Below, piece after piece: positions 2 through 48,458 of a DNA stretch of 64,000 bases (position 1 is the stretch's first letter; the number at the start of each line of letters is the position of its first letter). Under the pieces are notes generated by a model, which did no database searches, was not told the DNA's origin, and worked only from the letters and a program-made list of their open reading frames with translations. The position numbers and the translations under genes are program-made. This stretch comes from Campylobacterales bacterium (GTDB lineage Bacteria > Campylobacterota > Campylobacteria > Campylobacterales > Sulfurimonadaceae). The stretch covers positions 25,316 to 89,315 of the forward strand of contig JAPLGP010000005.1 of NCBI GenBank assembly GCA_026390075.1. The letters are read 5' to 3'.

Positions 2-2257
2 CTTTGTAGTGTCGCGAAAAAAGGTCTTTTGATTGAGCGAAGTAAGCCTGTTTTTTGGTCATGGGCGGAGAGAACAGCACTTGCAGAAGCAGAAGTTGAG
101 TACGAAGACAAAGAGTCTCACTCAATTTTTATCGCTTTTGAACTCAGCGATGAAGCAAAAGCTAAACTTGGCATACATGGTAAAGCTGCACCAGTTATCT
201 GGACTACAACGCCTTGGACAATCCCTGCAAACACGGGAATTTCACTCAATCCAAATGAAGAGTATGTACTTACAACTACGGGCTATATCGTAGCAAAAGA
301 GCTTCTAAACTCTCTCATAGAGCAGAATGTTTTAAGCGGAGATATCGCACAAACATTCAAAGCAACAGAGTTTGAAAACTTACTTGCAATCAACCCTCTC
401 AACAGTAGAACTTCTCGCATAGTTTTGGGTGAGCATGTTTTGATTGACAACGGAACAGGTTGTGTTCACACTGCTCCAGGGCATGGAGAAGACGACTACC
501 GTGTTGGACTTGTGTATGATTTAGAAGTGGTTATGCCAGTCGATGAAACGGGTTGTTTTGATGATACGGTTGTTAAGCTTGGTCTGATTCCACATGCCGA
601 AACTTTTGTTGGAAAACATATTTTTAAATCAAACGATGAAATTATCGAACTTATGGGTGAAAGCGTTTTAAAAGTAAGTAAATTCACACACTCTTATCCA
701 CATTGTTGGAGAAGTCACACTCCACTTATTTTTAGAGCAACAAAACAGTGGTTTATCTCAGTGGATGAAAAACCACTTGGCGAAGATAAAACTTTAAGAG
801 AGATAGCTCTGAGCGAAGTTGAAAAAACATTATTCGTGCCTGAGAGTGGAAGAAAAAGACTCACTTCTATGGTTGCGAACCGCCCTGATTGGTGTATTTC
901 TCGTCAGCGTGATTGGGGTGTGCCGATAGCATTTTTCAGAGTAAAAGCGACAGGCGAAGTTCTTTTGGATGAAAAAGTTTTAAACTTCACAGCTATGATT
1001 TTTGAGATGCACGGCAGTGATGTTTGGTACTCTATGTCGATTGAAGAGCTACTTTATGCAGGAAGCGGTTACAAAGCGGATGAACTAGAAAAAGTAACGG
1101 ACATTTTAGATGTTTGGTTTGACAGCGGTTCCACATGGAATGCGGTTTTAAAATCTCGTAACTATGATGCAGGTGCATATCAAGCTGACCTTTATGTAGA
1201 AGGCTCTGACCAACACCGCGGATGGTTTCAATCTTCTCTCTTTTTAAGTGCAGCAGTAGAACATAAAGCACCTTATAAAGGCGTTTTAACGCACGGTTTC
1301 ACAGTCGATGAAAAGGGCGAAAAAATGTCCAAATCCAAGGGCAATGTTGTTGCACCTGAGAGCGTTTTAAAAGAGTACGGAAGTGAAATTCTTCGTCTTT
1401 GGGTTGCTTCGAGCGACTACCAAAGTGACCTGAAAATCTCAGACGGCATCTTAAAACAGACCGCTGAAAACTACAGAAAACTGAGAAATACTTTTAGATT
1501 TTTGATGGCAAATATCAACGACTTGGAGAGTTTAGTTCCACATGCCGAGATGGGCGAACTTGACCAATGGATAGTTGGAGTTGCAAAAAAAGTTTTTGAC
1601 GACACACACAAAGCGTTTTCAAACTACAACTTTGTGCATGGAATGAGTTTGTTAAACAACTTTATCGTTAATGAGTTAAGCGGAATTTATCTTGACATCA
1701 CAAAAGACAGACTCTACTGTGACGCGGCAAATGACAAACATCGCCGTGCAAGTCAGAGTGCGATGGCTATCATCACAAAATCACTTCTGCTTTTAATCGC
1801 TCCGATTTTGACTTATACAGCGGATGAGATTATAGACAATGCACCAGCAATTATCAAAGGCGATGCAAAAGATATTTTTGAGTTAATGTACACTCCAATC
1901 GAAGCTGGCGAGAGTAGTTTCAACGCCGAGTATATGAATGAAGCAAGAGAAGGTTTTTACGAAATAGTTGATAAACTCAAAAAAGAGAAAATCATCAAAA
2001 GTACACTTGAACTTGTTTTGCATACAGAATCCAAAATAGCACTTGATATGAACACAACGGAAGCTGAGGATTGGTTCGTCGTCTCTGGCATATTTGAAGA
2101 TAAACCAGAAGAAGAGATACTTGGAACTTTTAAAGTCAATGAAGATACTTTTATTATCTCAAAAGCAACAAAAGCAAAATGCCCAAGATGTTGGAAATAT
2201 CACTCAGAAAATGAAGAATCCACATGCCAAAGATGTAGCGAGGTTCTAAGTGCCTAA
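2..2257 (+). CDS. ileS: Isoleucine--tRNA ligase (5' part outside window)
   Basis: WTTTPWT, GTGCVHTAPGHG, DWCISRQR, KMSKS motifs, C-terminal CPRCW zinc finger; frame open from base 2. Confidence 0.98.
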   Translation, partial: LCSVAKKGLLIERSKPVFWSWAERTALAEAEVEYEDKESHSIFIAFELSDEAKAKLGIHGKAAPVIWTTTPWTIPANTGISLNPNEEYVLTTTGYIVAKELLNSLIEQNVLSGDIAQTFKATEFENLLAINPLNSRTSRIVLGEHVLIDNGTGCVHTAPGHGEDDYRVGLVYDLEVVMPVDETGCFDDTVVKLGLIPHAETFVGKHIFKSNDEIIELMGESVLKVSKFTHSYPHCWRSHTPLIFRATKQWFISVDEKPLGEDKTLREIALSEVEKTLFVPESGRKRLTSMVANRPDWCISRQRDWGVPIAFFRVKATGEVLLDEKVLNFTAMIFEMHGSDVWYSMSIEELLYAGSGYKADELEKVTDILDVWFDSGSTWNAVLKSRNYDAGAYQADLYVEGSDQHRGWFQSSLFLSAAVEHKAPYKGVLTHGFTVDEKGEKMSKSKGNVVAPESVLKEYGSEILRLWVASSDYQSDLKISDGILKQTAENYRKLRNTFRFLMANINDLESLVPHAEMGELDQWIVGVAKKVFDDTHKAFSNYNFVHGMSLLNNFIVNELSGIYLDITKDRLYCDAANDKHRRASQSAMAIITKSLLLLIAPILTYTADEIIDNAPAIIKGDAKDIFELMYTPIEAGESSFNAEYMNEAREGFYEIVDKLKKEKIIKSTLELVLHTESKIALDMNTTEAEDWFVVSGIFEDKPEEEILGTFKVNEDTFIISKATKAKCPRCWKYHSENEESTCQRCSEVLSA

Positions 2258-2372
2258 CTTCGCAGAGCCAGTTTCTTTTACATTTATCGCAGTTACCGTA
2301 GCTGTGATATTTGTTATCATAGGTATTGGGATTGCACTTGTTAAGGTTGGTAAGAAGTCTAGGAATTCATAG
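2250..2372 (+). CDS. 40-aa single-TM membrane protein (MPNFAEPVSFTFIAVTVAVIFVIIGIGIALVKVGKKSRNS)
   Basis: GTG start overlapping the ileS stop; hydrophobic helix with basic tail; below the ORF-track cutoff. Confidence 0.55.
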   Translation: MPNFAEPVSFTFIAVTVAVIFVIIGIGIALVKVGKKSRNS

Positions 2373-2479
2373 GGGTTATTGCTTTAACTCCAAAAATGGA
2401 GATTCATTCAGATAGGTGTAATTTTAATGTAATTTTTAGATTATAACAGTTAGCATTAGGCACTAAACTTAAAGGAATT

Positions 2480-3241
2480 GTGGTTATGAATATATCAAAA
2501 ACAATAATTATTCTATCAATTGTTTTTACACTAAATGCTTCGGAAATAGAGCCATTTGGCAAATTTAAATTTGGTGATACAATAACACCAATTTATGAAA
2601 AATTATGTTCTATTGAAGGAATTAAAACAATTCAACTTGGTTTCTCAGAATCCATAACAAGAAATGATTTTTGTATTAGCAAGGAGTATGCAATTGAACA
2701 AATTGTAAAATCTGCTACTCCTAAATATGGTCCTATTTTGATATCAAAAGTTGAAATTCATGGTTTTGAAAATATTGCTAGATACAATTTATATATAAGA
2801 GCAGATGGGATAAATATAAAGAATGTAGATTTTGAACTCATTTTGCAATTAGGTGCTTTCAGGGAAGAACAAACAGCTGGAAGTTATCTTTTAACACAAA
2901 ATGATATTATTAAAATTCAAAATTTTTATGTTCCGTTAGAATTACAAAGGTTACAATTAAAACCTAAAGATAACAAGTCGTTAGAAATATATAAAAAAGA
3001 AATATTCACTATTTTATGGAATAAGTATGGTTATTTAGTAAATGATAAAAAAGCAAAAGAAATTTTTCAAAATCAAAATTATATGAATGTGTATGCAAAA
3101 GATAATACTCATTTATCCTTTAATGGAGATGGTGTAATTTATGATTCAGAAAATTATTTAAATAAATTAAGAGATGAAACATTGAAGTCTTATATGAAAG
3201 ATTTGCCAAAAAATAAAAATGATTCTAGTGAAAGTTTATAA
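2480..3241 (+). CDS. Hypothetical exported protein, AT-rich
   Basis: 253-aa ORF, AAGGA RBS, signal-peptide-like N-terminus. Confidence 0.7.
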   Translation: MVMNISKTIIILSIVFTLNASEIEPFGKFKFGDTITPIYEKLCSIEGIKTIQLGFSESITRNDFCISKEYAIEQIVKSATPKYGPILISKVEIHGFENIARYNLYIRADGINIKNVDFELILQLGAFREEQTAGSYLLTQNDIIKIQNFYVPLELQRLQLKPKDNKSLEIYKKEIFTILWNKYGYLVNDKKAKEIFQNQNYMNVYAKDNTHLSFNGDGVIYDSENYLNKLRDETLKSYMKDLPKNKNDSSESL

Positions 3242-3784: not shown

Positions 3785-5128
3785 GTGATTACATTAAAAG
3801 AAGCATTAAAATTAAATAAAGAAGAACTAGAAAATTTCAAAAACGATTTAAAAGCTAAAATAGAAGCGCGTCCTGAACTCAATGCGTATATTGATGTACA
3901 CAACATCGGTGAAGGTGTGCCGATAGCTATCAAGGACAATATCCAAGTCAAAGATTGGTCGGTAACTTCTGGCTCAAACATCCTTCAAGGCTACATCGCT
4001 CCTTACAATGCAACTGTTATCGAGAAGATGATGGCGTCAGGTTTAAGCCCGTTTGGAAGAACAAACATGGATGAGTTTGCGATGGGTTCAACTACTGAAT
4101 CAAGCTTTTATGGCAAAACATTAAATCCACATGCCAACGACCGAGTTCCTGGCGGAAGTAGTGGTGGAAGTGCCGCGGCTGTTGGAGCGGGTCTTGCCAT
4201 CGCTGCACTTGGAAGTGACACAGGTGGAAGTATCCGCCAACCTGCTGCATTTTGCGGTATTGTTGGGATGAAACCAACTTATGGACGCGTGAGCCGTTAT
4301 GGTTTAGGTGCATATGCTTCGAGTTTAGACCAAATTGGACCAATGACGCAAAATGTGGAAGATGCGGCGATTTTGTACGACATTATCAGTGGACATGATG
4401 CAAAAGATTCCACAAGTGCGGACATGAATGACAAAGTTTGTGATAAGTTAAATCCAGACCGTAAACTCCGTATCGCCGTGCTTCCAAAGTACATCGAAAA
4501 CGCTTCACAAGATGTAAAAGATGCGTATGCAAAAGCGACAAAAGCACTCAAAGATGCGGGACATGAGATAGTAGAAAAAGAGCTTATGGATGCAAAATAC
4601 GACATTTCAGCGTACTACATCACTGCAACCGCAGAAGCTACAACAAACTTGGCAAGATATGACGGTATCAGATATGGAAACCGCAAAATCGGCAAAGACT
4701 TGAATGACACTTTTGTAAAAACAAGAAGTGAAGGTTTCGGTGATGAAGTAAAACGCCGTATTTTACTTGGAAATTTCGTTCTCTCAAGCGGATATTACGA
4801 TGCGTACTATGTCAAAGCACAAAAAGTGCGTCACCTTATAAAAGATGAGTATACAAAAATATTTGAAAGTGCAGATTTGATTCTCTCACCAGTTGCACCA
4901 AGCGTTGCAAACAAATTCGGTGCATTTTCAAACCCGATGGAAATGTATTTGAGTGATATCTATACAATCAGTGTTAATCTTGCAGGACTCCCAGCCATCG
5001 CACTTCCAATCTCAAAAAGTAGTGAAGGAATGCCAATAGGACTTCAACTCATAGCTAAAGCCTACGATGAGCAAACACTTTTTGATGGTGCTTTGAGTTT
5101 GGAGAGAAAGATTAATTATACGAAGTAA
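3785..5128 (+). CDS. gatA: Asp/Glu-tRNA amidotransferase subunit A
   Basis: Amidase signature [31 protein letters not shown]. Confidence 0.97.
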
Positions 5129-5189
5129 ATAAGTTTTTATCAAAAAGAAACTTACATCTTATGGCATGTGGAAATATTTAACGAGATAT

Positions 5190-5300
5190 ATTAGAGTTCT
5201 TGCAAAACTCAGATTGCTTCGTCATTCTTCCTTGGCACATGACGGTCATTGCGAGTCGGCGTGAAGCAATCTAAAAAGAGAGTTTTGCAAGAAGTCTATT
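5190..5300. repeat. ~108-bp palindromic intergenic repeat, copy 1
   Basis: Terminal inverted repeat (A/T)TAGA(C/G)TTCTTGCAAAACT enclosing AGATTGCTTC..GAC / GTCATTGCG..GAAGCAATCT halves. Confidence 0.9.
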
Positions 5301-5381
5301 TTCATTTCCACATGCCAAGCTTTCATCTAAACTTTCAAAATAATTATTTGAGCTTCACTTTTTACAGCTACCACAACATCA

Positions 5382-9055: not shown

Positions 9056-9085
9056 CTTGGCATGTGGAAATTTCCACATGCCAAG
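9056..9085. terminator. Perfect 30-bp palindrome of two inverted GGCATGTGG motifs
   Basis: CTTGGCATGTGGAAA-TTTCCACATGCCAAG downstream of the Pit gene. Confidence 0.65.
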
Positions 9086-10858: not shown

Positions 10859-12079
10859 TTACGCTTCGATATAATCCAAATCTTCATGAAAAGTTTCACG
10901 CGTAAAATAGAGTGCAGTTAAAGCAATAAAAAATACTACTAAGCCAACGACTGCAGCAGAACCTAAAACACCAAAACTTCCTTTAAGAAGCATAAAACTA
11001 GAGGTAATCGGCACTACAGAACCTCGAACAAAATTTGGAACTGTGGTTGCCACGGTTGCACGGATATTTGTTCCAAACTGCTCTGCCGCCATCGTAATAA
11101 AAAGTGCCCAGTAGCCACAGAACACACCAAGTAAAAATATTGCGGTATAAAAAGAAGAGGCAGTCACGCCTGAAAGAGTAAAATAATAAAGCACACTAAC
11201 AACTGATAAAATCATAAAAATAGTGTATGCGCGTTTACGGCTTTTCATCTGTTGTGAAAGATATCCACTCGCTAAATCGCCTATCGAAAGCCCGATATAG
11301 CAGTACATAAGAGCCTGACCCGCAGTCACATCTCCACTAATAGCTAGGGCTTTTGCAAACTCAGGTGAAAACATGACTAAAACCCCAACCACATACCAAA
11401 GAGGCATTCCGATGACAATCGCTTTAATGTATTTGCTAAAGAGTTTTTTATGTGTAAAAAGTCCAAAAAAATGACCCCGTTTGACATCATCACTCGCATG
11501 ATGCTCAAACATTGCCGACTCTTTGACTCGAAATCTCAACACAAGAAGCATAAAACCGAGCACTCCGCCGATAATATAAGCGTTGCGCCACGCAAAATGT
11601 TCTGTAACAAGATTTGCGGCTACAACACCAAGCACTCCGAATGCGGCAATACTCATAACCCCATATCCACGCAACTCTTTTGGCAAAATCTCAGCGACAA
11701 GCGTTACTCCAGCACCAAGCTCTCCAGCCAAACCAATCCCTGCAATAAAACGCAAAAGTGCATACTGTTCAACATTGGTTACAAAAGCATTAAGGAAATT
11801 GGCAACCGAATAGAGGATAATCGAAGCAAAAAGCACCGATAAACGCCCTTTTTTATCTCCTAAAATGCCCCAAAGAATCCCGCCGATAAGCATTCCAGAC
11901 ATTTGCGCATTGAGGATTATTGACCCCCAAAGAGTTATAGCTTCTTTGTCAAGTCCAAGTTCTGTTAAACTTGCAACTCGCACCACCCCAAATAAAATCA
12001 AATCGTAAATATCTACAAAATATCCCATCGCAATGACAATGACTGGAAGAGTGAGAACCTGACGCACAACAGATTTCAT
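10859..12079 (-). CDS. MFS transporter
   Basis: About 12 TM; GILGDKKGR motif A, GLAGELG, AEQFGTNIRAT. Confidence 0.92.
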   Translation of the reverse strand: MKSVVRQVLTLPVIVIAMGYFVDIYDLILFGVVRVASLTELGLDKEAITLWGSIILNAQMSGMLIGGILWGILGDKKGRLSVLFASIILYSVANFLNAFVTNVEQYALLRFIAGIGLAGELGAGVTLVAEILPKELRGYGVMSIAAFGVLGVVAANLVTEHFAWRNAYIIGGVLGFMLLVLRFRVKESAMFEHHASDDVKRGHFFGLFTHKKLFSKYIKAIVIGMPLWYVVGVLVMFSPEFAKALAISGDVTAGQALMYCYIGLSIGDLASGYLSQQMKSRKRAYTIFMILSVVSVLYYFTLSGVTASSFYTAIFLLGVFCGYWALFITMAAEQFGTNIRATVATTVPNFVRGSVVPITSSFMLLKGSFGVLGSAAVVGLVVFFIALTALYFTRETFHEDLDYIEA

Positions 12080-13221
12080 GACAATCTTCCTCTGTAATCT
12101 GTATAGTCAAATTCTTTAACAACATCCAATGAGCCATCTTTTCTATAAATGGCTAATGACGGGAGTTTTATACCATTAAAAGTAGTATTTTTCACAAAAG
12201 TGTAGTGGATTTGGTCTTCAAAGATAACTTTATCGCCGATTTTTAACGGTGCATCAAAAGAGTAATCACCCATAATATCCCCTGCTAAACAGGTGTTTCT
12301 GCCAAAACGGTAGGTGTATTTTTTCTCCCCTGCCTCACCACTTCCTCGAACATCTGCACGATACGGCATAGCCAAAGTGTCTGGCATGTGGGCTTCTGCA
12401 GAAGTGTCTAAAATAGCGACGCTCATGCCATTTTCAAAAACATCTAAAACAGTTGCGATTAGAAATCCTGTCTGCCAACCGACCGCTTCTCCCGGCTCTA
12501 AATAAACTTCAACATCGTATTTTGCTTTGAACTCTTTAATGAGACGAATGAGTTTTTCAACATCGTACCCTTTTTTGGTTATGTGATGTCCACCACCGAA
12601 ATTGATATATTTTAAACCTTTAAAGTATTTTGAAAATTTCTCTTCAAAAGCCACCAAAACTTCTTCAAGCGCATCTACATTTTGCTCACATAGTGCGTGA
12701 AAATTGAGTCCATCCACATGCTCTAAAACGCTCTCATCAAAATTCGCAAGAGTAGTACCCAAGCGGCTATAAATGCCACATGGATTGTAAATATCTTTTG
12801 GCGAAGAGGAGACTTCAGGGTTTATTCTCAAAGAAAGTTCGGCATGTGGATTTATCTCTTTGACTCTCTCTTTAAATTTAAAAAGTTGATTCGGTGCGTT
12901 AAAAACTATGTGGTCGGAAATTCGAGCGATTTCGTCGATATCTTCTTCTTTAAAAGCTGGAGAATAGGTGTGAACCTCGGCATGTGGATTATATTTACAA
13001 AACTCTTCTCTCGCCAATTTTGCTTCATGAAGTCCACTTGAAGTGCACCCTTTGAGGTATTTTGACACAAGAGGAAATGTACTCCACATGGCAAAACCTT
13101 TAAGAGCCAAGATTATCTTCGCCCCACTCTCTTTTTGTACATAATCAAGGAGTTTGAGATTGTTTTCTAAAAGCTCTTCCTCGCAAACATAACAAGGTGT
13201 TTTTATACTGTTTATATCCAT
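12076..13221 (-). CDS. nspC: Carboxynorspermidine decarboxylase
   Basis: TPCYV, LALKGF, HFHALCEQ-like NFHALCEQ, NFGGGH, EPGEA, YTFVKNTTFNG. Confidence 0.93.
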   Translation of the reverse strand: MDINSIKTPCYVCEEELLENNLKLLDYVQKESGAKIILALKGFAMWSTFPLVSKYLKGCTSSGLHEAKLAREEFCKYNPHAEVHTYSPAFKEEDIDEIARISDHIVFNAPNQLFKFKERVKEINPHAELSLRINPEVSSSPKDIYNPCGIYSRLGTTLANFDESVLEHVDGLNFHALCEQNVDALEEVLVAFEEKFSKYFKGLKYINFGGGHHITKKGYDVEKLIRLIKEFKAKYDVEVYLEPGEAVGWQTGFLIATVLDVFENGMSVAILDTSAEAHMPDTLAMPYRADVRGSGEAGEKKYTYRFGRNTCLAGDIMGDYSFDAPLKIGDKVIFEDQIHYTFVKNTTFNGIKLPSLAIYRKDGSLDVVKEFDYTDYRGRLS

Positions 13222-14167: not shown

Positions 14168-15361
14168 TTACAGCTCTTTTACTTGCCAAGGAAGCCCTTG
14201 TGTGTTCATCTCTTCCATAAAAGCATCAGGGTCTAGTTGTTCCATGTTAAACACTCCAACTCCGCTCCAAATGCCTTTTAACATAAGTTTCGCACCAATC
14301 ATAGCAGGAACGCCCGTTGTATAAGAGACGCCTTGAGCGTTTGTCTCACGGAAGCACTCTTCATGGTCTTTTACTTGGTAGATATAAATCTTTCTTGGTT
14401 TTCCATCTTTGATACCCTCAACAACTACGCCGATGTTCGTTTTGCCTTTTGTTCGAGGACCAAGAGAAGCTGGGTCTGGAAGAAGAGTTTTTAGAAATTC
14501 CATAGGAACGATTTTCATTCCCTTGTGTTCAATTGGCTCAATTCCCAACATTCCAACATTTTCTAAACACTTCATGTGTGTCAAATAACTCTGTCCAAAT
14601 GTCATAAAAAATCGGATGCGTTTAAGCCCTTTGATGTTTAAAACCAAAGATTCCATCTCTTCATGGTAAAGCAAATAACTATCTTTTTCGCCCACTTCAG
14701 GATAATCCCAAACCATTTTAATCTCCATCGGCTCAGTCTCAATCCACTTTCCATTTTCCCAATAACGCCCTTTTGAAGAGACTTCTCTGAGGTTGATTTC
14801 AGGGTTGAAGTTGGTTGCAAAAGCGTAGCCATGGTCACCTGCGTTACAGTCTAGGATGTCGATTGTATGAATCTCATCAAAGTAGTGTTTTTGCGCATAA
14901 GCACAAAATACATTTGTAGCCCCAGGGTCAAAACCGCTTCCTAAAAGCCCCATAATTCCAGCTTCTTTGAACTTCGCATCTCTTTCCCACTGAAGTTTGT
15001 ACTCAAACTTTGCTTCATCTGGATGTTCATAATTTGCAGTATCAAGGTAAGGAGTTTTTGTTGCAATACACGCATCCATGATTGTTAAATCTTGATACGG
15101 AAGTGCCACATTTATCAGGATATCTGGCTTATGTAAGTTGATGAGTTTTATCACTTCGTCTGTGTTGTCTGCATCAACAGTTGCTATCTCAATGTTGGCA
15201 TGTGGAAGTTCACTTTTTATAACTTCACATCGACTAAGAGTTCTACTTGCCAATACAATCTTGCCAAATACATCTGCATTTTGCACACACTTATGTACAA
15301 CTACTCTACTTACTCCACCTGCGCCGATAATCAATGTTGTTTTCATAAAAAATTTCTCCAA
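14168..15361 (-). CDS. Saccharopine dehydrogenase family protein, likely carboxyspermidine dehydrogenase
   Basis: IIGAGGVS, YLDTANYE, GSGFDPG, FATNFNPEINLRE; next to nspC. Confidence 0.9.
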   Translation of the reverse strand: MEKFFMKTTLIIGAGGVSRVVVHKCVQNADVFGKIVLASRTLSRCEVIKSELPHANIEIATVDADNTDEVIKLINLHKPDILINVALPYQDLTIMDACIATKTPYLDTANYEHPDEAKFEYKLQWERDAKFKEAGIMGLLGSGFDPGATNVFCAYAQKHYFDEIHTIDILDCNAGDHGYAFATNFNPEINLREVSSKGRYWENGKWIETEPMEIKMVWDYPEVGEKDSYLLYHEEMESLVLNIKGLKRIRFFMTFGQSYLTHMKCLENVGMLGIEPIEHKGMKIVPMEFLKTLLPDPASLGPRTKGKTNIGVVVEGIKDGKPRKIYIYQVKDHEECFRETNAQGVSYTTGVPAMIGAKLMLKGIWSGVGVFNMEQLDPDAFMEEMNTQGLPWQVKEL

Positions 15362-15775: not shown

Positions 15776-17594
15776 ATTTATCCTTCATTTTTTGTATAAT
15801 TTTTTGTAGTTCATCTGCTTTTGTATCTCTTGAAACTGGCGGAGCAAAATAGACCGTTATCTCTCTTCTTGCAAAAAAATTCTTCTTCATTTCTGGCTTA
15901 TATTTTGAAAAAATACTTCCAAAAATTCCATCGATGAAAAATGGAATTATAACACCCTCATAATCAGTTGGTATAAGTTCATAGCCTCTATTAAATAGAG
16001 CAATATCTGAAGTCATAGCTATCTCGCCCTCAGGATAAAGTGCAACGACTTTACCCTTTTTGAGTCTATTGTAAGCCTCTTTAAACGCATCTTTAAAGGC
16101 TTTTTGAGAGAGTGGTATCGCTTCACCTTTTTTAAAAATCGTGTGAAAACCCCTCCAGTTGTATATCTCTTTATCCATCATAAAATTGATTCTTCTTTCT
16201 ACTCCAAGCTGTAAGATAATCCAGTCTATCCAGCTTACATGATTTCCTAAAAGTAATACGGCATTGGCATGTGGAATATTTTCTAAGCCTACAAATTTAT
16301 AGTTATGTCTCATTCTAAAAACAAGCTCTATTATCGCCCAAAAAGTCATAACAGAGTAGCGTTTATAAAGCATGAGAAAAAGATACAAACCTACAAAAGA
16401 CATAAGATAAAAAAGTATTTCAGCATTCATTCCAAAGTATGCAAAAAGGGTTGTTAAAACTAAAAATGAGAACATAAAAATATTTTGTACAAAATTATTT
16501 CCTGCTAACACAGTTCCCAAATGAACTCTTGGTGTGATAAATTGGATTTGTGCGTTGAGTGGAACCATGAGTAAACCTGCAAAAATTCCAAAAAGTGTAA
16601 ACATAAGAGCCATTAAACTCATAGATTGCACAAAAGGAATGAGAAAAACCAAAAGAGTAATTCCAACTGAACCTACAACTACTAAACCTATATTGATGTA
16701 ATACTTGGAAAAATTTGCCGCCATAATAGAACCTATGACGATACCGATACCAGCGAGTGCCATAACACCTTGAACAAAGATTGTATTTGTAACTCCAAGT
16801 TCACTCTTTGCATACTCGCCAAATACAGCCAAAACAACCTGAGAGATAGACCAAAAAAGGCTCAGAGCTATAATAGCTTCAAAAACTTCTTTTTTTCTTC
16901 TCATAATGTGCAAATTTTTTACTAAATAGGCACCTTTTATATATCTTGCATATTGAAATTTTTTCTGGGATGTTTGTAGCATTTTATTTGGAAGTTTTGA
17001 AGTTAAAAACCACTCGACAATCGAACTTACAACCAAAAGCCAACCAAGAGGAGCTATGAGTTGCAAAATATCCTCTTTTGTTTGAAAACTATTATCTAAT
17101 AAGCCCTCAAACAAAACAGTATAAAAAATAATTCCACCCAAAATAGCAACTGTTGTGACCGCTTGAACTGCTCCATTGCCTGAACTTATAAATTCATTTC
17201 CAACTAACTCTTTTATGTATCCATACTTTGCAGGTCCATAAATAGCAGCTTGAACTCCAAGTAAAAAAGTCATAGCAAACGCTGTGTAAAACCACCCTTG
17301 ATAGTAGGATAATGTGATAAAAAGGGTAATAAGTATCGCAAAAATAGAAGCGTATTCCATGATTTTATTTTTTGGAAATTTATCGGCTAAAAAACCTGAG
17401 GGAGAAAACATCATGATAAAAGGAAGAAGTATAAGAGCATTTACAATTGCAGTTAAAACTATCTGCATCTGCCCATCATAAACTTTAAAAACAGTGTTTT
17501 GAATGATGATTTTATGACCTAAATCCGTAAAAGCATTTAAAAAAATAACTATGAGATAGTTTATAAATCCAGTTATTGCAAAGATTTTTCTCAT
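15762..17594 (-). CDS. MFS (LplT-like) fused to PlsC acyltransferase (Aas-like, no acyl-ACP synthetase domain)
   Basis: PAKYGYIKEL, NHVSWIDW, LYPEG. Confidence 0.88.
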   Translation of the reverse strand: MRKIFAITGFINYLIVIFLNAFTDLGHKIIIQNTVFKVYDGQMQIVLTAIVNALILLPFIMMFSPSGFLADKFPKNKIMEYASIFAILITLFITLSYYQGWFYTAFAMTFLLGVQAAIYGPAKYGYIKELVGNEFISSGNGAVQAVTTVAILGGIIFYTVLFEGLLDNSFQTKEDILQLIAPLGWLLVVSSIVEWFLTSKLPNKMLQTSQKKFQYARYIKGAYLVKNLHIMRRKKEVFEAIIALSLFWSISQVVLAVFGEYAKSELGVTNTIFVQGVMALAGIGIVIGSIMAANFSKYYINIGLVVVGSVGITLLVFLIPFVQSMSLMALMFTLFGIFAGLLMVPLNAQIQFITPRVHLGTVLAGNNFVQNIFMFSFLVLTTLFAYFGMNAEILFYLMSFVGLYLFLMLYKRYSVMTFWAIIELVFRMRHNYKFVGLENIPHANAVLLLGNHVSWIDWIILQLGVERRINFMMDKEIYNWRGFHTIFKKGEAIPLSQKAFKDAFKEAYNRLKKGKVVALYPEGEIAMTSDIALFNRGYELIPTDYEGVIIPFFIDGIFGSIFSKYKPEMKKNFFARREITVYFAPPVSRDTKADELQKIIQKMKDKYETK

Positions 17595-17597
17595 TTT

Positions 17598-18326
17598 TTA
17601 GCTATTTTCTTCTTCATCATTTGCTAAAGTCGTACTCCAGCCCTCATAAAAGCCATGTTCTTTTTTGATAAGTGCATACAACTCTTCAACAACTTTTTTT
17701 AGTTCTTCTTCTGTTGGCATGTGGATTTTAACTAAAGCCACTCCGTGTTCATACTCATCGTTGGCAATATCATCTTTAAATGTAAACCCAATGTCCATAG
17801 CGCTAATTATAAATCTCTCTTTTTGCGTGCTTGTGTCAAACACCGCATAATGCTCGATTTCTCTAGCAATAGTGTTATCATCTCCCTCTTCTTCTAGTAA
17901 AAATAGGATTTGCGCACTTTGAATGTGATGCGATTCTAACTCTGTTGGAGTGAGTTGAAGCTCATAAAAACTCCATTTCGTATCTCGTACAACATTACTC
18001 TCATAAACATAATTTGTAGGTGTTAAAATTTTTGCAACAATAGCGTTCAGTTCTTTAGAATCAGGTGCATAAAAATAAAACTCACTCCAACCATCTACAA
18101 CTCTGTTACCAACATATTTCGCTTTTTCTTCATGCTCAAGAGCAATGATAAGAGACTCTTTCGTCTCTAAAAACTCTTCATAACCATCTATATTTTGATT
18201 GAGTGCATCATACTTTATAAAAATACTAAATAACCATGGATTGCCCTCTTTAAAATCACCCGCATCAACATCAACTTCTATGTTTATAAGACTTTTGTCT
18301 TCCATTCTGTTAAAAATTTCTCTCAT
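17598..18326 (-). CDS. DUF695 / RraB-like domain protein
   Basis: DGWSEFYFY; C-terminal REIEHYAVF...GFYEGWST. Confidence 0.75.
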   Translation of the reverse strand: MREIFNRMEDKSLINIEVDVDAGDFKEGNPWLFSIFIKYDALNQNIDGYEEFLETKESLIIALEHEEKAKYVGNRVVDGWSEFYFYAPDSKELNAIVAKILTPTNYVYESNVVRDTKWSFYELQLTPTELESHHIQSAQILFLLEEEGDDNTIAREIEHYAVFDTSTQKERFIISAMDIGFTFKDDIANDEYEHGVALVKIHMPTEEELKKVVEELYALIKKEHGFYEGWSTTLANDEEENS

Positions 18327-19758: not shown

Positions 19759-20286
19759 ATGAAAAAATTCTTTATATACATTATTCTGGTTTTTGCACTT
19801 CCTTTGAGTGCAGAAATCTTAACCTCTCCAATAGATGCAATGAAATATGCTTATGGACAAAACAGCGAAATAAGCAAAAATGATATTTTACTCTCCTCAG
19901 AACAAGAGAGTAGCATAAGTCAAGAAGCAAAAGTGGCACTAGATACTAAAATATTTAGAGTCTTCAAAGCCGTAGCAGATAATAAAATTCTTGGCTATGG
20001 AATTTTAATTAGCAAACAAGTTCGTTCAAAAAATGCAGTGATTCTTTACATAATTACTAAAGAGTCTCTATTAAAAAGCATAGAAATCATAGCTTTTAAT
20101 GAACCTATTGAATATTTGCCATCCAAAGAGTGGAGTTCACAGTTTCAAAATATTGAGACGACTCAAATGTTAAGAATTTCTAAAGAGATTCCGACTATAA
20201 CAGGTGCGACGCTCTCAGCTAGAAGTGCCGTAGATGGCTCACGAATAGCCTTTGCTTTTTATAACACGGTTCTAAAAGAGAAATAA
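19759..20286 (+). CDS. Exported FMN-binding domain protein
   Basis: ITGATLSA flavinylation motif, IIAFNEPIEY. Confidence 0.85.
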   Translation: MKKFFIYIILVFALPLSAEILTSPIDAMKYAYGQNSEISKNDILLSSEQESSISQEAKVALDTKIFRVFKAVADNKILGYGILISKQVRSKNAVILYIITKESLLKSIEIIAFNEPIEYLPSKEWSSQFQNIETTQMLRISKEIPTITGATLSARSAVDGSRIAFAFYNTVLKEK

Positions 20287-20759
20287 TGAAGTTCACCATC
20301 ATTAAAGATTTAAATCAAGACAGCATGATGAAGCCGATTTTATCAGGTTTGCTCTTTTTCACCCTGCTCTATCTTCTGTCAGATTTTATTGTAAAATATA
20401 GTAATTTTGGAATATTTCCACATGCCATACACGCAACACTCTTTGGAAATGAAGAACAGTTTATAGACCCAATAAATAAAGCATCATTTTTAGAGTTCTG
20501 GCATGTGGAAATCTTTTTTATTATGATGATTCTATTTACTCTAAGCACCGTTTATATTCGGCTAAGTAAAGCTTCAAAAAGTGCTATAGTTATAGTCAAT
20601 CTAATGATGATGAGTGCGATTACTTCACTCATTAGTTTGCCTCTTGCCTATTTTCTCAGCTCTGACTTTATAAACATTTATGTTGCAACTTTTTTTATCT
20701 GGCATATTTTAGCACTCATAAGTACGCTCTATTCTCTCAAAAGACTGCGTTATGCATAG
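20286..20759 (+). CDS. Membrane protein with conserved-looking His residues
   Basis: TM helices; LEFWHVEIF, WHIL. Confidence 0.7.
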   Translation: MKFTIIKDLNQDSMMKPILSGLLFFTLLYLLSDFIVKYSNFGIFPHAIHATLFGNEEQFIDPINKASFLEFWHVEIFFIMMILFTLSTVYIRLSKASKSAIVIVNLMMMSAITSLISLPLAYFLSSDFINIYVATFFIWHILALISTLYSLKRLRYA

Positions 20760-21774: not shown

Positions 21775-21878
21775 ATTTCTTGCAAAACTCTCTTCTTAGA
21801 TTGCTTCACTTCGTTCGCAATGACCGTCATTGCGAGGAAGAATGACGAAGTAATCTGAGTTTTGCAAGAACTCTATTA
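21771..21878. repeat. ~108-bp palindromic repeat, copy 4, between convergent mntP and apbE
   Basis: Touches both stop codons. Confidence 0.9.
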
Positions 21879-26097: not shown

Positions 26098-26303
26098 TAT
26101 TTACTCACTATTGTTGGCATGTGGGAATGCATGTCAAGTTTCTCTTCGAGTGCCGTGATGCGTTTTTGGAGTGCATCTAGAGTCTCTTCTTTGCAGCTTA
26201 TTCTCTTATAGATAACTTTTTTAGTAGAACCTATAGCCTCACTTATGCTACTTGCTATAAGAATCAAACCTACCATGATGATGAGATAATCTATTGTTTG
26301 CAT
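26097..26303 (-). CDS. Small membrane protein with coiled coil
   Basis: 68 aa, coupled to 25555-26097. Confidence 0.6.
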   Translation of the reverse strand: MQTIDYLIIMVGLILIASSISEAIGSTKKVIYKRISCKEETLDALQKRITALEEKLDMHSHMPTIVSK

Positions 26304-28086: not shown

Positions 28087-28839
28087 TTGAATAAGTTCGA
28101 AGAGGAATTACAAAAACTATTTCCAAATACAAAAATTATTAAGCTCAAAGATATAACCACAAAAATAGCAACCATCTCAAAAGTAAGAATAGGTCAGACA
28201 AGAACTTTTAGTGAATATGATGAAATATCTCTTAATGATTTAGATGCATATGGTGTTATAACAGTTCCAGAGAATCCTAAGTATCTCGGTCCTGCGAATT
28301 ATTCGTCCATTGGCTCTCAGCGTTTGCTTGAGGGGGATGTTGTTCTAACCCATAGAGGAAGTGTTTTTAAAGTTGGGGTAGTTGGAAGTGAATATAAGAA
28401 AGTAATTGTCGGCAACAACAGCATGATACGCATACAATTTCCACATGCCAGAAATAAATATACTCCACTGTTTGTGCAAGCCTATCTACAACTCCCATTT
28501 GTTAAAGAGTATCTCAATAAGCAAATCACCTGTGGCTCAAAAGAGAGAAAGATTTTAAGTTCTGCAAATTTAGCAGAACTTCCTATTCCTGAGTTTGAGG
28601 AGAAGAAGCAAACATTTGATTTTTTAGAACTCTATTATGACAGAATCAGTATGACCTTGCAAGCGCAAAAGCTTTTAGATGAAGCAGCTAGGATTATTAA
28701 GACTATGGGAGTATTTAAAGAGTCTGTGATTTTTGATGCGCTCAATAAGAGTGATGAGATGGAAGTTATTTTAGCAAGAGATAAAAGAGTGCTTGTTGCA
28801 ATGGGGAAACTGCGAATGGAGATGGAGGCTTTAGTATGA
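28087..28839 (+). CDS. Orphan restriction-modification specificity (HsdS-like) half-subunit
   Basis: LLEGDVVL..RGS.FKV, LAELPIP; no hsdM or hsdR nearby. Confidence 0.6.
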   Translation: MNKFEEELQKLFPNTKIIKLKDITTKIATISKVRIGQTRTFSEYDEISLNDLDAYGVITVPENPKYLGPANYSSIGSQRLLEGDVVLTHRGSVFKVGVVGSEYKKVIVGNNSMIRIQFPHARNKYTPLFVQAYLQLPFVKEYLNKQITCGSKERKILSSANLAELPIPEFEEKKQTFDFLELYYDRISMTLQAQKLLDEAARIIKTMGVFKESVIFDALNKSDEMEVILARDKRVLVAMGKLRMEMEALV

Positions 28840-37728: not shown

Positions 37729-40700
37729 ATGAAAACACTCAGACTCTTCATAAGCTCAACATTCGATGATTTTAAGGATGAGAGAGATGCTATCCAAGCA
37801 GAGCTTATCCCTCATTTAACTAATCTATGTAAAAAATATAGTGTAGGTTTCATGCCAATAGACCTTCGCTGGGGCGTAGCAGCAGAAACACAACATGACC
37901 AAAAAACCATGGAGTTGTGTCTTAATGAGGTAAAAGCATGTAAAGGTGAACCAAATCCAGATTTTTTAATCTTAACAGGTGATAGATATGGGTGGATACC
38001 ACTGCCTTATATGATAGAAAAAGATGAGTTTGAGACACTTTATAGTTTTATCAAAGTTGCTGATAAAGAACTCATAAATAAATGGTATATGCTCGATGAG
38101 AACCAACTTCCAGCTTCATATATCTTGCAAAAAAGAGAAAACGAGTTTACTGACTATGACACATGGATGACAATTGAAAACAAACTAAGAACAATTCTGC
38201 AAGAGAGTATCACTCAAACCGACTACTCACAAGAGATAAAAGATAAATACTTCACATCAGCAACAGAATTTGAATATCTTGATTACATAAAAGATTTCAT
38301 AGGTGAAAAAAATGAAGCTCTCTTTGTTGTAGATAGAAAAATAAATAATAATGGCATCATTTCAGATAAATATTTTGATAACAACCAAAGACTTAAAAAA
38401 TTTAAAAAAGCTCTTCAGGATAAGGCACCAGATGAACACTATATCATCTCACATACGACACTTAAACCTAAAACATATCCTAAAGAGAAGGATGTAATTG
38501 AGACCTTACATGTGAACTCACTCATAGAACAGCTCAAAGAAAAACTCTCAGCCTCTATAGAAAAAGAACTTATTAGAGTAAGCGCTTATGACACAGCAAT
38601 CAGTGAACAAGAGATACACAGACTACATAAAAATTCCATCGCAAAAAACATCTTAGGTCGAGATGAAGAGATAAACGAGATTCAAGAGTATATAAATACA
38701 GATACATCCTCCAATCCATACATTATTTATGGAACTTCAGGTTTAGGAGAATCATCTGTCATGGCATGTGGAATTCTGCAAAGCGAAGAAGCACCCAACA
38801 AACAAGTGATATGTCGCTTCTGTGGCATAACCAAAGAATCATCAAGTACACGCTCGCTTTTGAAATCAATTTTCAAGGAGCTCGACATAGAACTTCCTGA
38901 AGAACAAGCAGAGCAAACAACAATGATGCAGGAGATGACAGCTAAAAAAGAGGACACCTTTGAACTAGATGTACAAGACGCATTTGTAAACATTAAGGAA
39001 GATGTCGTCATCTATATAGATGCATTAGACCAGCTCGGAGATAAAAGTAAATTAGAATGGCTCCCTTTTACCCTACCAAAAAATCTTAAAATAGTTCTCT
39101 CAGTACTCAAAGATGAAAACTATCAAGAAGACATCTATTATCATGATAAACTCGAAGAACTTGGATTTAACAACATGCACCCACTTTCAGTTCTCAGTAG
39201 TAGTGATATAGCAAAAAAAATTCTCTTAAACACCTTAAAACCTTACAATAGAACGCTTCAAAATAATCAAATAGAGTATATTATGAATCTATATAAAGAG
39301 ATAAACTCACCGCTTTATCTCAACATCATAGCCCAAGAAGCTCTACACTGGAGTAGTAATAAAAAAGATTTTGAACTAGCAAACACACAACAAGATGCTA
39401 TACATGAGTTTATAAAAAATCTAACAGAACTCTATCACCATAACAAACTGCTCATACAAAGAGTATTTGGTTATCTATTTGCTTCTCAAAACTCTTTAGA
39501 TGAAGCAATACTTTATGAGATACTCTCAAATGATGAAGAGCTTGTCAAAAACACTGAAAATGAATACCACACAAATGTCACAAAAAAACTTCCTATGTCC
39601 GTATGGGCAAGACTCAGCTATCAGATAGCACCGTTTTTAAAAGAGGATGAAAACGCGAAGATCAAGTTCTTTCACAGAGAATTTGGCGAGGGGGCAAAAG
39701 CACTTTACAGTGTAGAACTCTCACAAAAACTTCTAAATATCTTGCAAAATATGCTCGATGCAACGACACTAAATGATGAAAAAGAATCACTTACGGATAT
39801 TTATATCAAAACTCTTATGCATCAAAAATATCTTTATCCTGAGAGTTCTATTGAGGAACAGGTTCAATATTTAAGTACAAAAGTAAAAAGTGATGAAGTA
39901 TGGGTGAGAAATTTTATTACAAAAATTTTGCAATTAGGGGAAAAGTTTTATCAGCAAACTGAAGATAAATGGGCGAAAGCTTATAATCAATGCAATATGG
40001 ATATAGCTCAAGAACTTTATGACATAGATAAAAAATTATGGCAAGAGGTTTATATTAAAGCATTAAGAAATCTTGCACTTTCATTTTTAATAGAATATGA
40101 AGAAGAGGATGGATTTTTTTTATTGAATAAATTACAATTAATTCTTCAAGATCTCTATGTACAAGACGAAAAAATATGGCTAACTTATGCAGATGCTTTA
40201 ACTTTAAATGCTGGTGCATATAGTAAGAGTGACAATCGTTTCAAAGATGCAATTCAGTTTCAAGAAAAATCTTACAGCATTCTCAAACTTCATAAAGAAA
40301 GTTCTGAAAAATGGGCAGAATCTTATACAAGAGCTTTAAGTAGACTTGCAACGTTATATGCAACTGAAGGAAATTTTCAAAATGCAATACCATTGCAGCA
40401 AGAGGCATTAGGAATCCTAGAAAATCTATATGATACTAATAAAAAAAGATGGGCAGAGGACTATACAAGTACTTTAAAAAATCTTGGAGTATCTTATACT
40501 TTTATATCACAATTCAAAGATGCAATACAGTTATTAGAGTCATCTAAAGAAATACTAAAAAACTTATTTCAAGAAAATCGAATAAGATGGGCAGATGGTT
40601 ATACTACTTCATTAAACAACCTTGCATTGATATATAAGCAAACTGGAGCAACCTCTGAAGCGATGAAACTAGAAGAAGAATCATGGGAGATACTAGAAAA

Positions 40701-41297: not shown

Positions 41298-44200
41298 ATG
41301 AATAACAAAAAAACATTCCGCCTCTTCATCTCCTCAACCTTTAACGACTTCCGAAGAGAACGAGAAGTTTTACAAACAAAAGTATTTCCACATGCCAAAG
41401 AGTACGCTTCAAGCAAAGGTTACACTTTTCAACCCATAGACCTTAGATGGGGAGTAAGCAACGAAGCACAGCTTGACCAAAAAACATTAGAGCTTTGTCT
41501 AAGTGAAGTACGAGCATGTAAAAGCCATATACATCCAAACTTCTTGATTATGATAGGAGATAGATATGGTTGGGTTCCACTTCCTTATGCTATAGAAAAA
41601 GAAGAGTTTGAAACATTAACTGCACTCATGACTCAAAGTGATAAAGAAGCTGTTTTAGAATGGTATAAACTAGATAAAAACCAACTTCCAGCTTCTTATA
41701 TCCTAAAAGAGCGAAGCAATGAGTACAAAGTATTTGAAACCTGGGGAGCAGTTGAAACAAACATAAGAACAATCTTACAATCAGCAGTAAATAACTCAAA
41801 CCTAACCGAAGAACAAAAGCGCAAATACTTCCTCTCAGCAACAGAAGCAGAGGTAGAAGAGGGAATCATCCCTTACATCCAACCCACAAAATATCAAACA
41901 GATGAACTCCTAAACAAAAACAGTTCACTGCATACAGTTGACCCAGAACACATCTTTGGTTTCTTTAGAGATATTGACAAATCAACTCAAACAGAAGATA
42001 AGTTTATTCAAGAGGACTACAATGAAGCTCAAGATTTTAAAGAAAGGGTCAAAGCTGAACTACTAGAAAATAATATTCTTCATGCAAAAACAACTCAAGT
42101 AGATAAAGAGAAATTAGAAGAAACCTATCTTACAGAGTTTGAAAAAAGAATGACAGAGTTCTTAGAATCTCAAATAGATTCTCAAAAAGCAAAAGAGACA
42201 GATGAAAAACTCACACCCTTACAAATAGAACTCCAAGCCCAAAGCTACTTCGCACAAATAAAAAGAAAAGACTTCCTCGCACAAGAGAGTCTAAGAGAGA
42301 CAATAGCAAACTATATCTCAGATAACAACCAACAACCATTTCTCATCTACGGAGCATCAGGAAGAGGAAAATCCTCTCTCATGGCAAAAGCAATCGAAGA
42401 AGCAGAAGAGTCTCTTCAAAAAAGAGTAATCTACCGCTTCGTAGGAGCAACTCCATATTCTAGTTCAAGTAAAGAGATACTGACAAGTATATTTGAAGAG
42501 TTAGGCGTAGATGTAAGAAGTGAGCAAGAAAAAGAAGAAAATGAACTCACTTTCAACTCAAATGAAAAACAAGAATCATTTGAAGAGTTTAGCTATAGAA
42601 TAGAAAATGAGTTTATGAATCTAAAAGAACATATAACTATTTTCATAGACGCAGTAGATCAACTAGGAAATGATGATAATTTCCTATGGCTGCCAGAAAC
42701 TTTGCCATCAAATCTAAAAATAATCATTTCAGCACTAGATGATAAAAAATACGAAGAGGACAGCAAATATTTTACAAACCTAAAAACTCAAACTCAAACT
42801 CAAACCATTTACGAGATACCAGAATTTTCACAACCAAAAGAACTTCTAAAAGCTCTTCTCAAAAAAGAAGAGAGAACTCTCCAAACAAATCAAGAGAACT
42901 ACTTCTTAGAACAGTTTAAAACCGCCAACTCACCTTTGTACATAAACGTTGCAACTCAAGAGTTAAAAAACTGGAAAAGCTATGACACTCACCAAGAGCT
43001 AGAATCAACACAACAAGGAATCATAAAAGAGTTTGTAGAAAACTTACATAAAGTTTACCATCACGATAAAGAGTTTGTTCATAAAGTGTTAGGATACCTC
43101 TATGCTTCAAGAGATGGACTCAGTGAGAGCGAACTTCTTCAACTCATTGCAACAGATAAAGAATTTATCCAAAAAATGGCACCAGAGACATGGCATGAAA
43201 ACCCAAACAAAGAACTCCCTCTGGTTCACTGGTCAAGACTTCAAACACAACTCAAACCTTTTCTAAGTTCAAAAACTCAAGATGGTGAAGAACTCATGTA
43301 CTTCTTTCATAGAGAGTTTGAAGATGTCATAGCAAAACTTCCAAACCAAAGAGAAGAACATGAAGCGATTATAAAAGCTACTCAAAAATTGATAGAACAA
43401 AACCAAGACAAACCATTCGACTCTAACAGATGGGGGAAACTTTATGCGACACTTATTACAGAGTATGAACTAAGATACCAAGATAAAGAGAAACAAAAAG
43501 AGTTTGCAGAGTTTATTGCTATCATTAATGATGAACCGTGGATTCAAAAGTGTGTAAGTAATCTCACAGAGATTGGTTATACACATATGATATACAATCG
43601 AATGCGAAAAGCAATGGCATATCAAGAGAGTGTTTTATATGCAACTAAGGCACTTTATAAATCTGACAAAGAGAGATGGGCAAATAATTACACCACGGCC
43701 CTAAATAATTTAGCCTTATCATATACAAATGTAAACCGCCAAAATGAAGCGATAGCACTCCAAGAGAAGAGTCTTGCAATCCTTGAAGAACTTTATAGAT
43801 CTGACAAAGAGAGATGGGTGGAGTTTTACACTACATCTCTAAATAATCTAGCCTATTCATATACAAATGTAAACCGCCAAAATGAAGCGATAGCATTCCA
43901 AGAGAAAAGTCTTGCAATCCTTGAACCGCTTTATGCATCCGACCAAGAGAGATGGGCAAAGGATTACACTTTAGCTATGGGTAATCTAGCCACTTCATAC
44001 GCAAATGTAAACCGCCAAAATGAAGCGATAGCATTCCAAGAGAAAAGTCTTGCAATCCTTGAAGAACTTTATAAATCTGACAAAGAGAGATGGGCAAATA
44101 ATTACACCACGGCCCTAAATAATTTAGCCTTATCATATACAAATGTAAACCGCCAAAATGAAGCGATAGCATTCCAAGAGAAAAGTCTTGCAATCCTTGA

Positions 44201-46014: not shown

Positions 46015-46016
46015 GT

Positions 46017-47996: not shown

Positions 47997-48342
47997 GCGC
48001 GGTGATTATGCACGATTTCGTAGTGGTTATATTTTTGAGGTTGGCAGAATGGATGAAGGTTTTTTATATACAGATGAATGGGATTATTCTATCGAGTACT
48101 GGAAACCATACGCAAGACGCGATTGCATATTATGGAAGCCGAACGAGGATGAAGTGTGCTTATTTTGGAATAAAGATGCGCAATATGCAGTTATTGGCAA
48201 ATTTAAAGAGATGGCAGGTTCGCAATATTTGACACTGCATGGCGAAGTATATGAAAAAACACAGCCATATCTTTTCCAAGTACCATATTTTTTACAAGAT
48301 AAATACGGGTTGCCAAATAGTACTTTGAAATTCTTGAGCTGA
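47986..48342 (+). CDS. Hypothetical protein
   Basis: 118-aa ORF overlapping the upstream gene end. Confidence 0.6.
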   Translation: MDFERGDYARFRSGYIFEVGRMDEGFLYTDEWDYSIEYWKPYARRDCILWKPNEDEVCLFWNKDAQYAVIGKFKEMAGSQYLTLHGEVYEKTQPYLFQVPYFLQDKYGLPNSTLKFLS

Positions 48343-48353
48343 AGGAAAATAAG

Positions 48354-48458
48354 ATGCAATCAAAAACATTTAGACTTTTTATAAGCTCAACATTCAGTGA
48401 TTTTGTAAATGAGCGTGAAATTTTACACACAAAAGTATTTCCACATGCCAAAGTATAA
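48354..48458 (+). pseudogene. 34-codon remnant of a third DUF4062 gene
   Basis: MQSKTFRLFISSTFSDFVNEREILHTKVFPHAKV*. Confidence 0.85.

Follow-up and report, generated by a model that had tools for sequence, protein, structure and literature searches.

A hyper-abundant, asymmetric DNA word in a Sulfurimonas lineage is a strong candidate for a self-DNA uptake sequence

The DNA studied here is a window of 64,000 nt, by which we mean the whole stretch analyzed. Its host was assigned by DnaE to Sulfurimonas (Campylobacterota), the nearest public relatives being uncultured Sulfurimonas with 96%, 94%, and 92% protein identity. The window comprises a stretch of core genes and an accessory or defence-like island, and it is sprinkled with the 10-mer GGCATGTGGA, which includes the 9-mer GGCATGTGG and is called the word below. 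The original prediction, made from the window itself, had likened the 9-mer to the DNA uptake sequences (DUS) of Neisseria and the uptake signal sequences (USS) of Pasteurellaceae. We followed the word through the window, the source genome assembly (G000; 2.40 Mb, 61 contigs, 34.3% G+C), and related genomes; we regard it as a strong candidate for an uptake sequence, not as an established one.

A pattern search found 26 exact copies of GGCATGTGG in the window, 15 on the plus and 11 on the minus strand, and thereby reproduced every predicted coordinate as well as the predicted strand balance. Shuffled versions of the window with preserved dinucleotides contained 0.16 copies on average and 2 at most, close to the chance figure of about 0.1 given before, and the proposed consensus YGGCATGTGGR was matched by all 26 copies. 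The predicted split into 20 coding and 6 intergenic copies became 18 and 8 with our map of open reading frames (ORFs), a gap that hinges on two short ORFs. Twelve coding copies read Pro-His-Ala and three His-Met-Pro, where 13 and 4 had been counted, and the frames Ser-Thr-Cys, Trp-His-Val, and Ala-Cys-Gly were each used once. The description of the intergenic copies as inverted pairs held for six of them (two tight pairs and one wide pair), while the other two are single. The features are as follows; the single copies were located by pattern search, and the tight pairs are given with the minimum free energy (MFE) of the predicted hairpin.

1-28449, no strand: core-gene stretch (ileS, gatA, dnaE, pitA, tRNAs) with 23 word copies in 28.5 kb, 0.81 per kb
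590-598, minus: word copy in ileS, CCA-CAT-GCC (Pro-His-Ala)
1538-1546, minus: word copy in ileS, Pro-His-Ala
2220-2228, minus: word copy in ileS, Ser-Thr-Cys frame; the related locus L106 has the same copy
4127-4135, minus: word copy in gatA, Pro-His-Ala
5163-5171, plus: intergenic word copy, 35 nt past the gatA stop
5308-5316, minus: intergenic word copy, 66 nt past the dnaE stop
9059-9082, no strand: tight inverted word pair (9059 plus, 9074 minus), hairpin with a 13-bp stem, 64 nt past the pitA stop, MFE -24.3 kcal/mol
12383-12391, plus: word copy in ORF 12076-13221, His-Met-Pro
12841-12849, plus: word copy in ORF 12076-13221, Pro-His-Ala
12979-12987, plus: word copy in ORF 12076-13221, Pro-His-Ala
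15197-15205, plus: word copy in ORF 14168-15361, Pro-His-Ala
16266-16274, plus: word copy in an acyltransferase/LplT-like ORF, Pro-His-Ala
17716-17724, plus: word copy in ORF 17598-18326, His-Met-Pro
20418-20426, minus: word copy in ORF 20286-20759, Pro-His-Ala
20500-20508, plus: word copy in ORF 20286-20759, sense strand, Trp-His-Val
22045-22053, plus: word copy in ORF 21876-22820, His-Met-Pro
22212-22220, plus: word copy in ORF 21876-22820, Pro-His-Ala
22443-22451, plus: word copy in ORF 21876-22820, Pro-His-Ala
22900-22926, no strand: tight inverted word pair (22900 minus, 22918 plus), hairpin 4 nt past the stop of ORF 22930-23634, MFE -23.8 kcal/mol
26116-26124, plus: single intergenic word copy, lying outside ORF 25555-26097 and close to its called start
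28441-28449, minus: word copy in ORF 28087-28839, Pro-His-Ala; final copy of the dense core stretch
28450-64000, no strand: accessory or defence-like island, the most word-poor region of G000, with 3 copies in 35.5 kb, 0.08 per kb
38763-38771, plus: word copy in the first STAND-like gene, Ala-Cys-Gly frame
41388-41396, minus: word copy in the second STAND-like gene, Pro-His-Ala
48441-48449, minus: single intergenic word copy upstream of the hipA locus

The enrichment extends to the whole genome, as the original prediction had expected. GGCATGTGG was found 1433 times in G000 (729/704), at 0.6 per kb and on all large contigs, compared to 4 to 8 copies expected from Markov models of orders 0 to 3, and is in 200- to 300-fold excess over low-order models. 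No other 9-mer of the genome, A/T-rich words included, is as frequent. For GGCATGTGGA, 1307 copies were present and 1.4 to 2.6 expected from the same models. The logo of the aligned genome copies was YTYGGCATGTGGAAnT, with background composition upstream of position -4 and beyond +13; since the flanks are random outside these limits, the word is a discrete unit rather than part of a longer repeat. Single mismatches within the inner CATGTG yielded variants with only 0 to 8 copies each, compared to the 1307 perfect copies, whereas the outer positions were more tolerant (GGCATGTGCA, for example, has 131 copies). Counts per 10 kb were nearly Poisson-distributed (mean 5.8, variance 6.4), and regular spacing, for which we searched G000, was absent. 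A 1.5-kb contig opens with five tandem 17-bp units (ATTTGTTCGGCATGTGG) that each contain the word (C2:1-90).

Relative to the genes, 502 copies lie in sense and 545 in antisense orientation, and the coding copies occupy all six reading frames (379, 251, 172, 94, 79, and 72 copies). As all frames are used, no peptide is under selection. These data bear on the idea that the word is the core of a mobile repeat, of the repetitive extragenic palindrome or miniature inverted-repeat transposable element type, or a repeat at the peptide level. Some copies do form intergenic inverted pairs, and a different palindromic family lies once between two words. However, the flanks are random beyond 4 bases, 73% of the copies are single ones inside unrelated genes and in all six frames, and viral contigs, scanned for a 14-mer form of the word, gave no more than single chance matches, which leaves this explanation with a negligible probability. 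The palindromic family itself is intergenic and distinct from the word (..CTTGCAAAACTC AGATTGCTTCG .. CGCAATGAC-GTCATTGCG ..) and occurs at about 190 places in G000, its segment AGATTGCTTC being present 193 times. The window copy (5190-5300) folds to about -74 kcal/mol and is flanked by the words at 5163 and 5308, which form the wide inverted pair of the convergent gatA-dnaE spacer.

A short, G-rich, over-represented word could also be a polar signal, either a Chi site for AddAB/RecBCD or a sequence orienting FtsK like KOPS (FtsK-orienting polar sequences). Strand polarity had been named in the original prediction as an observation that would favour Chi, and we found none: word orientation was 305/308 where the GC skew is negative and 236/229 where it is positive, while gene orientation is strongly tied to the skew (720/267 and 525/222). 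Orientation independent of the GC skew excludes both kinds of signal in all but a very small residue of probability. The density and over-representation of known Chi sites are, moreover, far below those of the word.

The word leaves its mark on the proteins. In the G000 proteome the tripeptide PHA was observed 389 times compared to 30 expected (13-fold), ACG 269 times compared to 26, GMW 83 times compared to 8, and HMP 106 times compared to 12, and the reversed tripeptides were close to expectation. An alignment of IleS with about 30 orthologues, a comparison of the kind the original prediction had proposed, showed that Pro-His-Ala is driven by the motif: the copy at 590 replaces Asn by His (IPNAE in the orthologues, IPHAE here), and the copy at 1538 entails three replacements (TPYEE to VPHAE), while the changes at 2220 are mostly synonymous. 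A lineage whose word is AAACGCAG carries that word at the IleS site corresponding to 590 (CCA AAC GCA GAG). Coding copies of USS likewise distort the proteome, and USS pairs lie at terminators (PMC2817400; bioRxiv 10.1101/2025.10.24.684340).

Although most copies lie inside genes, their density in G000 is about four times higher in intergenic (2.0 per kb) than in coding DNA (0.47 per kb). The genome contains 115 close inverted word pairs (58 plus/minus, 57 minus/plus). Among the 83 intergenic pairs, 39 were located in convergent, 37 in tandem, and only 3 in divergent spacers, although the latter make up 27% of the intergenic bases. Pairs in tandem spacers are found at a median of 12 nt past the upstream stop and 105 nt ahead of the next start. 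The mean MFE of the intergenic pairs was -20 kcal/mol, and a T-run was present in only 29 of the 83. The same placement past genes has been reported for inverted DUS and USS (bioRxiv 10.1101/2025.10.24.684340), and the pairs may act as terminators.

Copies of the word become rarer as DNA becomes more atypical. The word count in G000 is negatively correlated with tetranucleotide atypicality (rho -0.27, p 6e-5); word-free gaps of at least 10 kb number 10 compared to 3.8 expected. The right-hand part of the window contains both the longest gap of the genome (16.9 kb) and a further one of 10.3 kb. The genes of the island there encode an AAA_14/DUF4143 ATPase, a PrimPol-helicase, a ClpB/FtsH-like protein, the two STAND-like proteins, a VirD4/TraD-like protein, HipA, an MshE-like ATPase (54137-55750), and a WYL regulator, besides a weak integrase match. 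As this is the most word-poor region of the genome, the island (28450-64000) was probably acquired recently.

To place the word among relatives, the 10-mer and, as a control, the reversed word were counted in 251 Sulfurimonadaceae genomes. Eight genomes had 725 to 1307 copies, one 330, four 141 to 183, three 40 to 71, and all others 20 or fewer; the control gave 0 to 5. The word is thus abundant only within the genus of the window, and only in part of it, and it is clade-specific. In a DnaE tree of loci from metagenomes and genomes of relatives (L-numbers), the word-bearing loci form one clade with support 100/99, (L002, L026), (L001, (L008, (window, L024))), and word density is zero at the loci outside it. 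L008 (JBAZSU01) is nested in this clade but word-poor: its 23.6 kb contain a single exact copy and three copies with one mismatch. JBAZSV01, JAABQD01, and JAHJJX01 are further word-rich relatives. Altogether the word was seen in 12 independent loci (L001, L002, L024, L026, L085, L106, L133, L165, L167-L169, and, as a left-half variant, L082); the core in L026 and L133 is GCATGTGGAA, and the left-half form in L082 is TTTGGCATGT.

Other lineages have words of their own. The word of L172 is TGCATCTG(G), and TGCATCTGG is a further variant among the relatives. Elsewhere, the words are unrelated or only distantly similar to GGCATGTGGA: CTGCGTTT/AAACGCAG in L018, L064, L081, L104, and L164; AAACGC(GA) in the complete genome of Sulfurimonas aquatica (L170, CP046072), where the 8-mer occurs 10 times in 21.5 kb; TACATGTA in that of Candidatus S. 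marisnigri (L171, CP054493), also complete, with 16 copies in 21.5 kb, and in Sulfurospirillum; TTAGCATCA in L011; AGCGCGCT in L016; and TAGATTCTG in Helicobacter sp. CLO-3 (L072), with 47 copies in 23 kb compared to 0.9 expected. We take ACATCCCAAG and GATGAGGT, further words of Campylobacterota, to represent the same phenomenon, as we do CTGCGTTT and TACATGTA, both found in the loci studied here. Hyper-frequent words at Campylobacterota loci, L076 and L077 included, also comprise GCAATTGC and TAAATTTA. A sister species can have a word that is related or one that is wholly different (GGCATGTGGA, TGCATCTGG, TACATGTA, AAACGCAG), or can have lost the word. It is conceivable, at somewhat less than even probability, that fast-switching words for the uptake of self-DNA, recognized by a so far undescribed class of receptor, are at work in Sulfurimonas and related lineages and perhaps in a large part of Campylobacterota. 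In that case, uptake sequences would form a barrier to gene flow that is both common and evolvable, instead of a peculiarity of two families of proteobacteria.

Orthologous sites were followed in a syntenic 12-gene cluster resembling a type II secretion system (T2SS) in eight relatives. At one site, CTTGGCATGTGGAAA is identical in five word-bearing lineages, although the protein of that gene is only 63 to 88% identical to that of G000; the nested word-poor lineage L166 (GCA_947498025.1) has CTATGCATGTAGAGG there and, at other sites, remnants with one to three mismatches. At two of these positions, L172 and Candidatus S. marisnigri show the words of their own lineages, and the sister lineages' own words at orthologous sites are TGCATCTGG, TACATGTAAA, and AAACGCAG. 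Of the seven word 9-mers in the G000 cluster, word-bearing relatives kept 7/7, 4/7, 3/7, and 2/7, small numbers to be set beside a background 9-mer survival of 49%, 11.6%, 11%, and 7% in the same comparisons; L166, at the same overall divergence, kept 0/7. A synteny comparison around dnaE added no sites, since only dnaE aligned and dnaE is free of the word. These counts agree with one another and indicate that the word was present in the ancestor of the clade, is actively maintained among its descendants, and is being lost by at least one lineage in which this maintenance has ceased.

We read the word as a genomic 'self' mark that is specific to the clade and kept up at the DNA level. Such maintenance might serve a function other than uptake, the word being the site of an abundant chromosomal protein (for nucleoid organization, or as an orientation-free self-mark in repair or defence), or might reflect biased repair or gene conversion, as proposed for HIP1. 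The abundance, the strand symmetry, the conservation at orthologous sites, the decay, and the depletion in foreign DNA would follow from any genome-wide maintenance. Yet no known system of this kind writes about 1,400 non-palindromic 10-mers into coding sequence at the cost of residues, words of the HIP1 type are palindromes, and the hairpin pairs, the words of sister lineages, and the competence genes described below are matched together only by the known uptake-sequence families. We consider the two forms of this explanation, taken jointly, rather improbable.

HIP1 itself (GCGATCGC, cyanobacteria) resembles the word as a hyper-abundant short sequence in genes and spacers whose function is unsettled, and differs from it in being palindromic and tied to methylase sites; the word is asymmetric and forms hairpins only through inverted copies. 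The original prediction had left open a HIP1-like origin linked to methylation of the CATG core, for which we found no support. Outside the word, CATG is unremarkable in G000 (observed/expected ratio [O/E] 0.75), and the enrichment of the word is the opposite of how restriction targets behave. Strong avoidance was seen for ACGT (O/E 0.02), GATC (0.14), GGCC (0.14), CCGG (0.15), GTCGAC (0.04), and GTATAC (0.09), which suggests that several restriction systems are active in G000.

Methylation could act in another way, namely as the tag that admits DNA to uptake: the word or its core would be the target of a lineage-specific methyltransferase, only DNA methylated there would be taken up, and word switches would be specificity swaps. 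The same phylum offers a precedent, as RAATTY methylated by CtsM is needed for uptake in Campylobacter jejuni (PMC10046745). G000 encodes several methylases (EcoRI-methylase-family, D12-class, HsdM, MmeI-family, and three C5 enzymes), the words TACATGTA, AGCGCGCT, and GCAATTGC of related lineages resemble restriction-type palindromes, and the radical word turnover between sister species would be easier with swappable target-recognition domains (TRDs), the MmeI-like gene being a mosaic. Against this, the word holds about 18 to 20 bits over 10 to 12 contiguous bases, more than usual methylase sites, CATG is ordinary outside the word, and the D12 and C5 enzymes have plausible targets in the avoided ACGT, GATC, GGCC, and CCGG. 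The MmeI-family enzyme was rejected as the determinant, because homologues with 83 to 85% identical TRDs occur in L161 and L162, which lack the word, and in L164, which has CTGCGTTT. We judge a methylation tag to be unlikely.

The MmeI-family enzyme is widely shared across families, and its gene in G000 (C38:30562-33270) matches a Sulfurovum protein with 99% identity over the N-terminal 330 residues and 53% in the TRD, a mosaic indicative of a recent inter-genus exchange in which a domain was swapped. The EcoRI-methylase-family adenine methylase is encoded at C55:39994-41079 (PF13651, 4e-128), RAATTY sites are not avoided, and the enzyme might be the counterpart of CtsM. With this gene and the pilus cluster described next, G000 resembles C. 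jejuni; RAATTY differs from the word in being a 6-base epigenetic methylase site and not a long word in hundreds-fold excess.

Genes for DNA uptake are present in G000. DprA (PF02481, 1.1e-53) and ComEC (PF03772, 1.4e-23) were identified, as was a RecA candidate by its P-loop pattern only. An MSHA/Cts-like pilus cluster encodes a PilO-like protein, a 539-aa secretin, an AAA_22 ATPase, a TPR protein, an MshE-like ATPase, and a T2SSF platform protein, and there are two PilT-like ATPases, one of them assigned through a BLAST paralogue together with a T2SSE match. The N-terminal methylation motif of pilins was found in nine proteins above Pfam's cut-off and in one more below it. Six pilin-like proteins are encoded outside the T2SS-like cluster, one of which lay outside the scan and one below the cut-off; those at C43:28964-30977, C22:37700-38695, and C48:226-900 are receptor candidates. 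The genes for ComEC and DprA and those of the T2SS-like cluster contain the word. A ComB-type secretion system was not found in a crude search of G000, its VirB4/ComB4 pattern candidates resembling, by eye, SbcC, UvrA, an ABC transporter, and FtsK. The T2SS-like cluster is complete, with four pseudopilins; it is split over C54:33794-41776 and C38:314-2478 in G000 and contiguous in all eight relatives. Since it adjoins giant cadherin-like proteins or multihaem cytochromes in the relatives, the cluster is probably a genuine secretion system.

Taken together, the full set of features is not known to be matched by anything but the two established uptake-sequence families, and we therefore lean, with slightly better than even confidence, towards the reading that GGCATGTGGA is a DUS/USS-like word for the uptake of self-DNA, spread by biased uptake and recombination. 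The expectations of the original prediction at the sequence level (enrichment, absence of polarity, effects on residues) all held, the word proved to be clade-specific, and parallels that it had not named were added with the hairpin pairs past stop codons, the words of sister lineages, the decay in a losing lineage, and the competence genes; its uptake part stands as a candidate. We infer that the word biases uptake, and likewise which kind of protein reads it. In the proposed mechanism, a surface DNA receptor on the competence pilus would prefer fragments bearing the word, which ComEC and then DprA and RecA would import and recombine. Over generations this bias would spread new copies in the core genome and repair decayed ones, a molecular drive possibly aided by selection, and inverted pairs may have been co-opted as hairpins just past genes.

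In the Neisseriaceae, DUS (AT-GCCGTCTGAA and dialects) are read by the minor type IV pilin ComP. Like DUS, the word is a non-palindromic sequence of 10 to 12 bases with about one copy per 1 to 2 kb on both strands, a sharp core, and softer flanks; it shares with them the use of several coding frames, the hairpin pairs past genes, the depletion in acquired DNA, and the clade-specific variants, and its host likewise has a type IV pilus machine, ComEC, and DprA. It differs in its unrelated sequence and in its host, a member of Campylobacterota in which a ComP orthologue was not identified. With USS of the Pasteurellaceae (AAGTGCGGT / ACAAGCGGT) the word has the same genomic footprint in common, whereas the flanks of USS are extended and AT-rich and neither the sequences nor the hosts are related. 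The USS receptor is also unproven, ComN being a prediction.

Several observations weigh against this reading. Neighbouring species have very different words or none, and the words of sister lineages differ more radically than the DUS dialects of Neisseriaceae, so that turnover is faster. The words in G000 are slightly clumped (coefficient of variation 1.07 compared to 0.95 for random placement). A crude pattern search did not find ComEA in G000, and the pseudopilins of the T2SS-like cluster had to be rejected as receptor, since their divergence is no higher across word boundaries and the cluster is intact in word-poor L166. A literature search for competence in Sulfurimonas found none. The sole characterized self-discrimination in the phylum, that of C. 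jejuni, works by methylation and not through a long word (PMC10046745).

In a 2025 survey, uptake sequences comprise DUS in Neisseriaceae and USS in Pasteurellaceae (bioRxiv 10.1101/2025.10.24.684340). The original prediction knew of no such motif in this group; in agreement, our literature search on uptake sequences in Sulfurimonas, Campylobacterota, and Epsilonproteobacteria found none, and a search with the word itself returned only primers. A study from 1999 reportedly found no uptake sequence in Helicobacter pylori. Sequence-specific uptake is documented only in the two families, and how its specificity originates and changes is an open question. If the reading favoured here is true, a third independent case, in free-living, sulfur-oxidizing Campylobacterota, would make that question testable, because a single genus offers many words, visible word switches, and natural losses. 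Nested word-poor lineages could reveal the receptor by comparison of gene presence, and cultivated species with different words, such as S. aquatica (AAACGC) and Candidatus S. marisnigri (TACATGTA), would be candidates for cross-uptake experiments. The word distinguishes native from acquired DNA and could aid the binning of metagenomic contigs, and, if functional, it could serve the development of genetic tools for Sulfurimonas.

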